Shown: positions 57,296 through 57,884, numbered from the stretch's first letter. The stretch is 64,000 nt of DNA from a virus (IMGVR_UViG_3300015371_000015:1-64000), one strand, 5' to 3'. The notes: generated by a model not told the origin, from the sequence alone. Numbers and translations: made by a program.

Positions 57296-57369
57296 GATGC
57301 GGGTCGCTAGTCTTCGGTTATCAAACTCTCAATTTGAAGCCATCCGGAGACGTCAACCACATCCGCATC
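57296..57369 (+). ncRNA. Y RNA-like unit 4, minimal, with Glu-CUC anticodon stem-loop
   Basis: GATGCGG/CCGCATC outer stem; TCAAA-CTCTCAA-TTTGA at 57321-57337. Confidence 0.8.
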
Positions 57370-57495
57370 ACCTAAGACGGACCTTGGGCTATAGCAGGCG
57401 GCCCTTGGACGAAGGCCTCTAGGATACCGTCCAGAAGAGGACCAAGGCCGGTCGGGATGACCTCCCGCGGTATCCAAGTCTGCCCCCTAAGCTTC

Positions 57496-57636
57496 AGCGA
57501 CGTGGGTCGAAAGAGAATCGGTTAACTTTCCTCTCAAGAAAAAGACCCGGGTTCGAATCCCGGCGGGTGCATAGCACCTGTAGTTTAGTGGCCTAAAACT
57601 CAAAACATCGGTCCTCACCACTACATCTACGTCGTT
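57496..57636 (+). ncRNA. Y RNA-like unit 5, permuted tRNA-Glu(CUC)-like
   Basis: TTTC-CTCTCAA-GAAA anticodon arm, CCGGG-TTCGAAT-CCCGG T arm, CGGGTGC-ATA-GCACCTG acceptor, GTTT-AGTGGCCTA-AAAC D arm. Confidence 0.85.
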
Positions 57637-57645
57637 TAGTTTTGT

Positions 57646-57786
57646 GTCAGAGCGGGTCGAACTGGAATTCGGTTACCTCTGCGGAAGGAGTATTGTCGGT
57701 TCGAGTCCGGCCGTCCCCGTTAGGGGATGTAGTGTAATTGGCAACACGCTAAAATCCCGGAATCCTCCCTTTACATCCGCTCTGAC
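57646..57786 (+). ncRNA. Y RNA-like unit 6, permuted tRNA-Arg(GCG)-like
   Basis: CCT-CTGCGGA-AGG anticodon arm, GTCGG-TTCGAGT-CCGGC T arm, CGTCCCC-GTTA-GGGGATG acceptor, GTGT-AATTGGCA-ACAC D arm. Confidence 0.85.
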
Positions 57787-57801
57787 CCATATTTGCACAA
57801 C

Positions 57802-57884
57802 CCTGTTCGGGTCGAATTGAATCGGTTATCATTCGACTGCTAATCGGAAACCGACGCCGGTTCAAACCCCTACATCCGAACAGG
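57802..57884 (+). ncRNA. Y RNA-like unit 7, minimal, with Ser-GCU anticodon stem-loop
   Basis: CCTGTTCGG/CCGAACAGG outer stem; TTCGA-CTGCTAA-TCGGA at 57832-57848. Confidence 0.8.

Follow-up and report, generated by a model that had tools for sequence, protein, structure and literature searches.

[quoted passage not shown] In the YrlA RNAs (RF02553), the conserved YUAY is followed by a less conserved 'V' stem-loop (Chen 2014, PMC4201824). In the YrlA literature, this V hairpin is regarded as a variable arm, and an anticodon loop is said to be lacking; in the structure of the S. Typhimurium YrlA, a Ro-linked helix occupies the position of the anticodon stem (Wang 2018, 10.1101/312249), which is also how the initial annotation of the present locus had characterized the described YrlA RNAs. 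A model cited in the same paper derives YrlA from dimeric tRNA transcripts. For the YrlA of M. smegmatis, which has a 7-bp acceptor stem, cleavage by RNase P and gain of CCA were found in vivo, and the authors raise possible aminoacylation. Short Y RNAs (YrlB) of S. Typhimurium and M. smegmatis consist of short Ro-binding stems with a small insert and are clustered with YrlA-like units, the published M. smegmatis YrlB having a possible T arm (Chen 2014). Thermus phage Y RNAs bind the host PNPase (Thermus phage Ro60 paper).

Hairpins copying an anticodon loop have been described in other RNAs. The E. coli thrS mRNA operator contains such a hairpin, which is bound by ThrRS, and the tRNA-like structure of TYMV likewise uses one to engage a tRNA-reading protein (the TYMV case is cited in Wang 2018). 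Unlike the Y-RNA hairpins presented here, these are single regulatory or viral elements directed at one synthetase each. Anticodon loops apparently shaped by a conflict over host tRNAs are also present in phage tRNAs that escape defences acting by tRNA cleavage (van den Berg 2023, PMC10264068; Azam 2024, PMC11555353), and these belong to the same phage groups as the hairpins below, including the cluster C1 mycobacteriophages. Those RNAs are working tRNAs with altered loops, which replace cut host tRNAs, whereas the mimics of this study would be Ro60-type Y RNAs, not standard tRNAs, with mostly unaltered loops. An anticodon-like loop in Y RNAs is not mentioned in the Thermus phage Ro60 paper, the jumbo-phage survey or the phage-tRNA paper on cluster C1 mycobacteriophages, and no description of the V hairpin as an anticodon mimic was found in the literature searched, which covered part of the work on bacterial Y RNAs.

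The window analysed here, a stretch of 64,000 nt, is the opening 64 kb of a 79.7-kb virus record; its sequence is also present in rhizosphere and soil metagenomes. It carries a Ro60 (Rsr) gene (54776..56548, + strand), whose TROVE and vWA_Ro60 domains were recognised with Pfam (E 8e-39 and 5.5e-51). ATG 54776, preceded by the ribosome-binding site AGAGGAG, is the likely start codon; the longest ORF (additional region 54653-54775) has a TTG start that overlaps the first Y-RNA unit and was considered less likely. The gene is flanked by seven Y-RNA units with one common scaffold, i.e., outer stem, GGGUCG(A), upper stem, CGGUUAYC, insert, CCGG upper stem, CAYAUCC and outer stem. As is typical for YrlA, the Ro60/TROVE gene is adjacent, with less than 1.4 kb between its CDS and each of the seven units. 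In 7/7 units, the lower and upper stems are paired and the predicted Ro-binding motif GNCGAAN0-1G reads GGUCGAAG or GGUCGCUAG, and UUAUC, UUACC or UUAAC is found immediately 3' of the upper stem in all of them, corresponding to YUAY. Judged by these motifs, the shared scaffold is the Ro-binding module of Y RNAs. A Pistol ribozyme (53796-53858, + strand; Rfam RF02679, 60.8 bits) is located about 0.8 kb upstream of unit 1.

The inserts of the seven units, all on the + strand, differ considerably. Units 1, 5 and 6 have all three tRNA-like elements (T arm, closed acceptor hairpin, D arm), units 2 and 3 have them in part, and the YrlB-like units 4 and 7 lack them. Unit 1 (54616..54746) is YrlA-like with all three elements and has no hairpin between UUAAC and the T stem. 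Unit 2 (56561..56700) contains a T-arm-like hairpin and a UUCG hairpin, and unit 3 (57149..57285) combines the Ro-binding scaffold with a divergent insert; both are devoid of an anticodon-like hairpin. The Ro stems of the short unit 4 (57296..57369) enclose UUA, UCAAA-CUCUCAA-UUUGA and AGCCAU, and those of the short unit 7 (57802..57884) enclose UUAUCA, UUCGA-CUGCUAA-UCGGA and AACCGACG. Unit 5 (57496..57636) is fully tRNA-like and comprises the Ro stem, a hairpin, a variable region of 4 nt, a T arm (57547-57563), a 7-bp closed acceptor hairpin (57564-57580) and a D arm (57583-57599). Unit 6 (57646..57786) is likewise fully tRNA-like (T arm 57695-57711; 7-bp closed acceptor hairpin 57712-57729; D arm 57732-57747). 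The locus shares with YrlA the proximity to Ro60, the GNCGAA-type stem, YUAY, the permuted order of T arm, closed acceptor and D arm and the V stem-loop, and phage copies of YrlA are known. The Rfam model RF02553 (gathering score 69) gave only partial hits for unit 5 (27.2 bits) and unit 6 (24.5 bits); at the gathering score, no YrlA was reported in the window or 16 related loci, nor among the fetched phage and bacterial loci. The model therefore appears too narrow for actinobacterial members of the family, judging from these scores. ARAGORN detected zero tRNAs in the window. The hairpin and T arm of unit 5 score 21.4 bits with the tRNA model (RF00005, threshold 29 bits), and the acceptor is closed by a loop where a standard-order cloverleaf has an open end.

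Between units 2 and 3, an ORF of 86 aa (56743-57003, + strand) matches DUF4258 (Pfam E 1.6e-6); none of the ORFs neighbouring the array, including this one, matched a PHROGs family. A hairpin with a conserved box behind it at 57004-57090 recurs at 62492-62530 (93% identity over 39 nt) and, heading the cluster of units 3-7, looks like a repeated terminator or promoter element. A promoter scan of the region returned nothing. Units 4 and 5 are separated by about 125 structured nt (57373-57497; MFE -45.6 kcal/mol) that have no Y scaffold and match no Rfam family. The array is identical, with zero differences, in DNA contigs of four other rhizosphere runs, some of which are possibly the source sample of the window; due to the zero differences, these contigs are uninformative about how the loops vary in nature. 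An RNA dataset is absent among the sequencing runs listed for the window sequence.

Four units carry an anticodon-like hairpin (all + strand), and coordinate extraction placed these hairpins in units 4, 5, 6 and 7, where the initial annotation had put them. The hairpin of unit 4 (57321..57337) is UCAAA-CUCUCAA-UUUGA with 5 bp and the loop at 57326-57332; that of unit 5 (57526..57542) is (C)UUUC-CUCUCAA-GAAA(A) with a weak 4-bp stem and the loop at 57531-57537, 9 nt 5' of the T stem. In unit 6 (57674..57690), (UA)CCU-CUGCGGA-AGG(AG) has a 3-bp stem and the loop at 57679-57685, and in unit 7 (57832..57848), UUCGA-CUGCUAA-UCGGA has 5 bp and the loop at 57837-57843. As had been claimed, all four loops are of 7 nt with C32, U33, a purine at position 37 and A38, the loop CUCUCAA is identical on the two unlike stems of units 4 and 5, units 4 and 7 hold little besides the hairpin (inserts of only 26 and 31 nt) and units 1-3 have no hairpin at the matching site. 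The hairpins have the features of an anticodon arm (7-nt loop, U33, purine 37, Y32/A38 and, where a T arm is present, 9-10 nt between loop and T stem). Their stems reach 5 bp in the short units 4 and 7, compared to 3-4 bp in the tRNA-like units 5 and 6. The MFE folds of units 4 and 7 include the 5-bp stem with the 7-nt loop, and RNAfold pair probabilities are 0.74-0.94 for unit 4 and 0.65-0.77 for unit 7. For units 5 and 6 they are about 0.1, and the MFE fold of unit 6 favours a shifted register, CUCU/GGAG, with a 6-nt loop. Two of the four hairpins (units 5 and 6) would be doubtful if the window was taken alone; their predicted 7-nt register rests on homologues, e.g., CCU-CUGCAAA-AGG in phage Cashline.

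Relatives of the Ro60 protein were found in 354 phage records, mainly phages of Mycobacterium, Streptomyces, Gordonia and Microbacterium. Loci from 11 annotated phages, 5 IMG/VR records and 40 bacterial contigs were compared. The search for units relied on the two stems and the GGUUA anchor alone and, together with manual curation, resulted in 84 Y units. Units with a T arm were then screened, blind to the letters of the loop, for hairpins of ≥ 3 bp in which 9 or 10 nt lie between a 7-nt loop and the T stem. A spacing of 9-10 nt corresponds to tRNA positions 39-43 plus a variable loop of 4-5 nt. Such a hairpin is present in 32 of the 56 distinct T-arm Y units from the 16 viral and 40 bacterial loci, compared to 7.9 ± 2.6 (maximum 18) for shuffled upstream segments in 2000 trials; the remaining 24/56 units have none. 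In most full-length units, the stem is just 3 bp. Within the 32 loops, U33 (29/32), C32 (27/32, with A32 in the other 5/32) and A38 (29/32) form a frame, while loop positions 3-5 are free to vary. A check proposed earlier, namely that the middle triplet should vary in homologous arrays around a fixed frame, thus turned out as predicted, with C/A32, U33 and A38 nearly fixed and positions 34-36 variable. The expected conservation of U33 and R37 holds for the 14 phage units (U33 14/14, R37 13/14, A38 14/14) and fails in part for the bacterial units, in which position 37 is C in 7/18.

For covariation, the equal-length 17-nt arms were aligned without gaps; a MAFFT alignment of hairpin plus T arm was set aside, as gaps fell within the loops. 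Double-sided changes were counted at the inner three stem pairs of 33 distinct arms and number 7, 13 and 12. These arms reach a covariation score of 0.674 compared to 0.185 for shuffled arms and ≤ 0.19 for slid partners, a difference that is partly circular because the arms were preselected for pairing. Taken across these loci, the hairpin is a family trait which extends beyond this phage and beyond phages. Compared to the YrlA literature, the difference is that the window and many actinophage and actinobacterial units have a 7-nt U33 loop at the spacing of an anticodon arm.

Reference loops were obtained by running ARAGORN on the compared loci and three tRNA-rich phage regions, which gave 142 tRNAs with 72 distinct loops; 31 further tRNAs were taken from the genome of Mycobacterium sp. 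E1747. Eight of the nine distinct CU....A loops in phage T-arm units are exact loops of real tRNAs, where 30/256 (0.117) would be expected (P ~3e-7). The species matched are Glu, Ile, Cys, Arg, Ser, Asn, Thr and Lys, and phage Y loops also match tRNA loops of the Mycobacterium genome. This identity to the loop of a real tRNA is a second difference between the phage units and the YrlA of the literature. A chance origin of the hairpins was ruled out by the shuffle test (32 compared to 7.9 ± 2.6) together with this loop match. All 3/3 distinct loops of the window equal real tRNA loops: CUCUCAA (units 4 and 5) is the tRNA-Glu(CUC) loop of phage LilMartin, CUGCGGA (unit 6) the tRNA-Arg(GCG) loop of phage Phredrick and CUGCUAA (unit 7) the tRNA-Ser(GCU) loop of Phredrick and Mycobacterium sp. 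E1747. The latter loop recurs in Y RNAs of BearBQ and Sixama. Three more phage loops, AUUGCAA, AUUGGGA and AUUUGGA, resemble those of Ala, Pro and Gln tRNAs, respectively, and for AUUGCAA and AUUGGGA, position 32 is the sole difference from a real loop. Short units of other phages show likewise UAC-CUGCUAC-GUA (FuzzBuster), UCAA-CUGUCAC-UUGA (LinStu) and AUCA-AUUUGGA-UGAU (BearBQ), and each phage displays two to four different identities. Near-identical hairpins can have their loops switched between real ones, as seen for CCUU-CUGCUAA-AAGG of Sixama vs. CCUU-CUGAUAA-AAGG of Forza and for CCU-CUGCGGA-AGG of the window vs. CCU-CUGCAAA-AGG of Cashline. Recent capture of tRNA genes was dismissed as a source: since the hairpin stems are unlike the stems of the matching tRNAs, the hairpins are not freshly captured pieces of tRNA genes. 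Spacing, frame, stem covariation and loop matches bear out the initial view of the hairpins as look-alikes of anticodon arms and not chance strings.

In Sixama (locus L011, 5451-6040) and Forza (locus L015, 5533-6018), Y units stand among tRNA genes and a tmRNA gene downstream of Ro60, with more units upstream. The tRNA-rich region of the Ro60 phage Phredrick (locus L061, 31972-33880) contains genes for an RNA ligase and a polynucleotide kinase. These two enzymes are the classic repair kit for cut tRNAs.

Bacterial contigs retain the CU....A frame, mostly on a CCA/UGG stem, and their loops equal real tRNA loops in 4/16 distinct cases. Two bacterial loci sampled have cellular-looking flanks with epimerase, TetR and hydrolase genes. 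Because the hairpin is present at such loci, it is, as far as can be read from these contigs, an old trait of actinobacterial Y RNAs. Exact loop mimicry looks like a phage refinement, with small numbers (Fisher P = 0.05 for R37). Since the bacterial loops are often not anticodon-like, an ancestral role may need the U-turn frame only.

As read from the sequence, the hairpin of the window is the published V stem-loop of YrlA, hence the element itself is already known; what is apparently new is that the V hairpin has the loop and the spacing of an anticodon arm. In the published YrlB of M. smegmatis the small insert is a possible T arm (Chen 2014), whereas that of units 4 and 7 is a hairpin of 5 bp whose loop is exactly an anticodon loop. 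Given that a Ro-linked helix sits at the anticodon-stem position in the YrlA of S. Typhimurium, the hairpin might instead project as a variable arm. In the units compared here, the hairpin is separated from the T stem by 4-5 nt, a distance which fits a class I tRNA better than the variable arm of a class II tRNA. In the tRNA-like units, the hairpin has the position of an anticodon arm relative to the T arm, and the Ro60 helix would enter between the D arm and the hairpin.

On balance, the hairpins probably mimic anticodon arms within Ro60-binding Y RNAs of the YrlA/YrlB type and serve as tRNA-specific bait for a loop-reading protein. The scaffold would hold Ro60 while each unit shows the anticodon loop of one tRNA species, in the window Glu-CUC twice, Arg-GCG and Ser-GCU, to that protein. 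That a protein reads the displayed loop, and which one, we infer from the loops themselves: each phage has several tRNA-specific loops, which would be needless for a single common partner, and this favours bait for a loop reader. As candidate readers, we rank tRNA-cutting toxins and defence nucleases before enzymes modifying the anticodon loop, and these before synthetases. The nucleases lead as specific candidates, since they vary between hosts and are tRNA-specific. We know of no single modification enzyme which covers all displayed loops. As SerRS and AlaRS do not read the anticodon, a synthetase is unlikely to be the reader of the Ser(GCU) and Ala(UGC)-type loops that recur, and the sequestration of synthetases suggested in the initial annotation fits poorly for this reason. 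Its description of the RNAs as non-chargeable is unsafe for units 5 and 6, whose 7-bp acceptor stems are like that of the M. smegmatis YrlA, a substrate of RNase P and of CCA addition in vivo. Should the hairpin prove to be an anticodon arm whose loop is tRNA-specific, candidates for the partner of the tRNA-like end would narrow to readers of anticodon loops, and the Ro60 phages would be tied to current work on tRNA-targeting immunity.

Two further accounts of the loops are possible but not probable. In one, which is the foremost concrete version of the bait reading and follows the initial annotation, the Ro60-bound mimics would compete with host tRNAs for anticodon nucleases, or be cut themselves and thereby release Ro60. 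Copies of real tRNA loops, several identities in each phage and single-base switches between valid loops, as an arms race would give, are consistent with such a decoy or fuse, as are the abundance of tRNA genes in Ro60 phages, one of which carries RNA ligase and polynucleotide kinase, and the many tRNA-cutting VapC/MazF toxins of actinobacterial hosts (PMC10264068). The recurrence of Ser(GCU) and Ala(UGC)-type loops points the same way, as it speaks against synthetase readers. In LinStu, the loop CUGUCAC of a short Y unit (locus L010, 2896-2912) equals the tRNA-Asp loop of Mycobacterium sp. E1747, whereas the phage's own tRNA-Asp (locus L059, 1832-1904) carries CUGUCGA, a deviating loop marked as mutated by van den Berg 2023 (PMC10264068); this is a single example, however, and tRNA-Asp was not found as a documented VapC target in the literature consulted. 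The presence of the hairpin at bacterial Ro60 loci, of which the two sampled have cellular-looking surroundings, also argues against a nuclease decoy, and stems of 3 bp are possibly poor nuclease substrates. The other account, to which we give equal weight, takes the V stem-loop as a relic of the tRNA from which YrlA descends, retained for its part in folding, stability or docking of Ro60 or PNPase, with the anticodon letters unread. It agrees with the less-conserved V stem-loop of Chen 2014 (PMC4201824) and the dimeric-tRNA origin cited in Wang 2018 (10.1101/312249), accounts for the often non-canonical bacterial loops and fits the short stems and the many units in which the hairpin is missing. 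Drift, however, is unlikely to leave 8/9 phage loops identical to loops of eight tRNA species or to convert one real loop into another, and the short units 4 and 7 retain the hairpin, strengthened to 5 bp, after the loss of all other tRNA parts.

The same short units weigh against a two-piece tRNA on Ro60, which seems very improbable. Here, RNase P would cut units 5 and 6 within the closed acceptor hairpin and CCA would be added, giving a nicked but complete tRNA, its anticodon arm a true one, that might be aminoacylated or enter translation-linked pathways. Their 7-bp acceptor hairpins, as in the M. smegmatis YrlA that is RNase P-cut and CCA-bearing in vivo and for which aminoacylation was raised by the authors, make a nicked CCA-bearing form possible. 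Yet the loop is kept in units 4 and 7 despite no acceptor, T or D arm, a Ro helix at position 26 would probably clash with binding to the ribosome or a synthetase, and charging has been reported for no Y RNA. Returning to the mimics as bait for a loop-reading protein, a stronger version appears unlikely: a changeable set of host-type mimics on Ro60 might neutralise host tRNA nucleases, or sense them by being cut, with the identities tracking the nuclease repertoire. If true, this would be a novel class of RNA-based counter-defence and the first function assigned to the effector end of phage Y RNAs.

Regarding codon usage, GAG accounts for 76% of Glu codons, CGC plus CGU for 46% of Arg codons and AGC plus AGU for 27% of Ser codons, which is compatible with mimicry of heavily used tRNAs, a signal too weak to count. 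The anticodon-like hairpin, together with the T arm, also explains several tRNA calls in phage genomes. A GenBank tRNA-Thr(tgt) of prophiGD43A-5 (locus L012, 1678-1756), a GenBank tRNA-Gln in Forza (locus L015, 5534-5601) and a tRNA-Asn called by ARAGORN in Kribbella (locus L033, 2325-2398) each sit on the 5' half of a Y unit and are probably false annotations.
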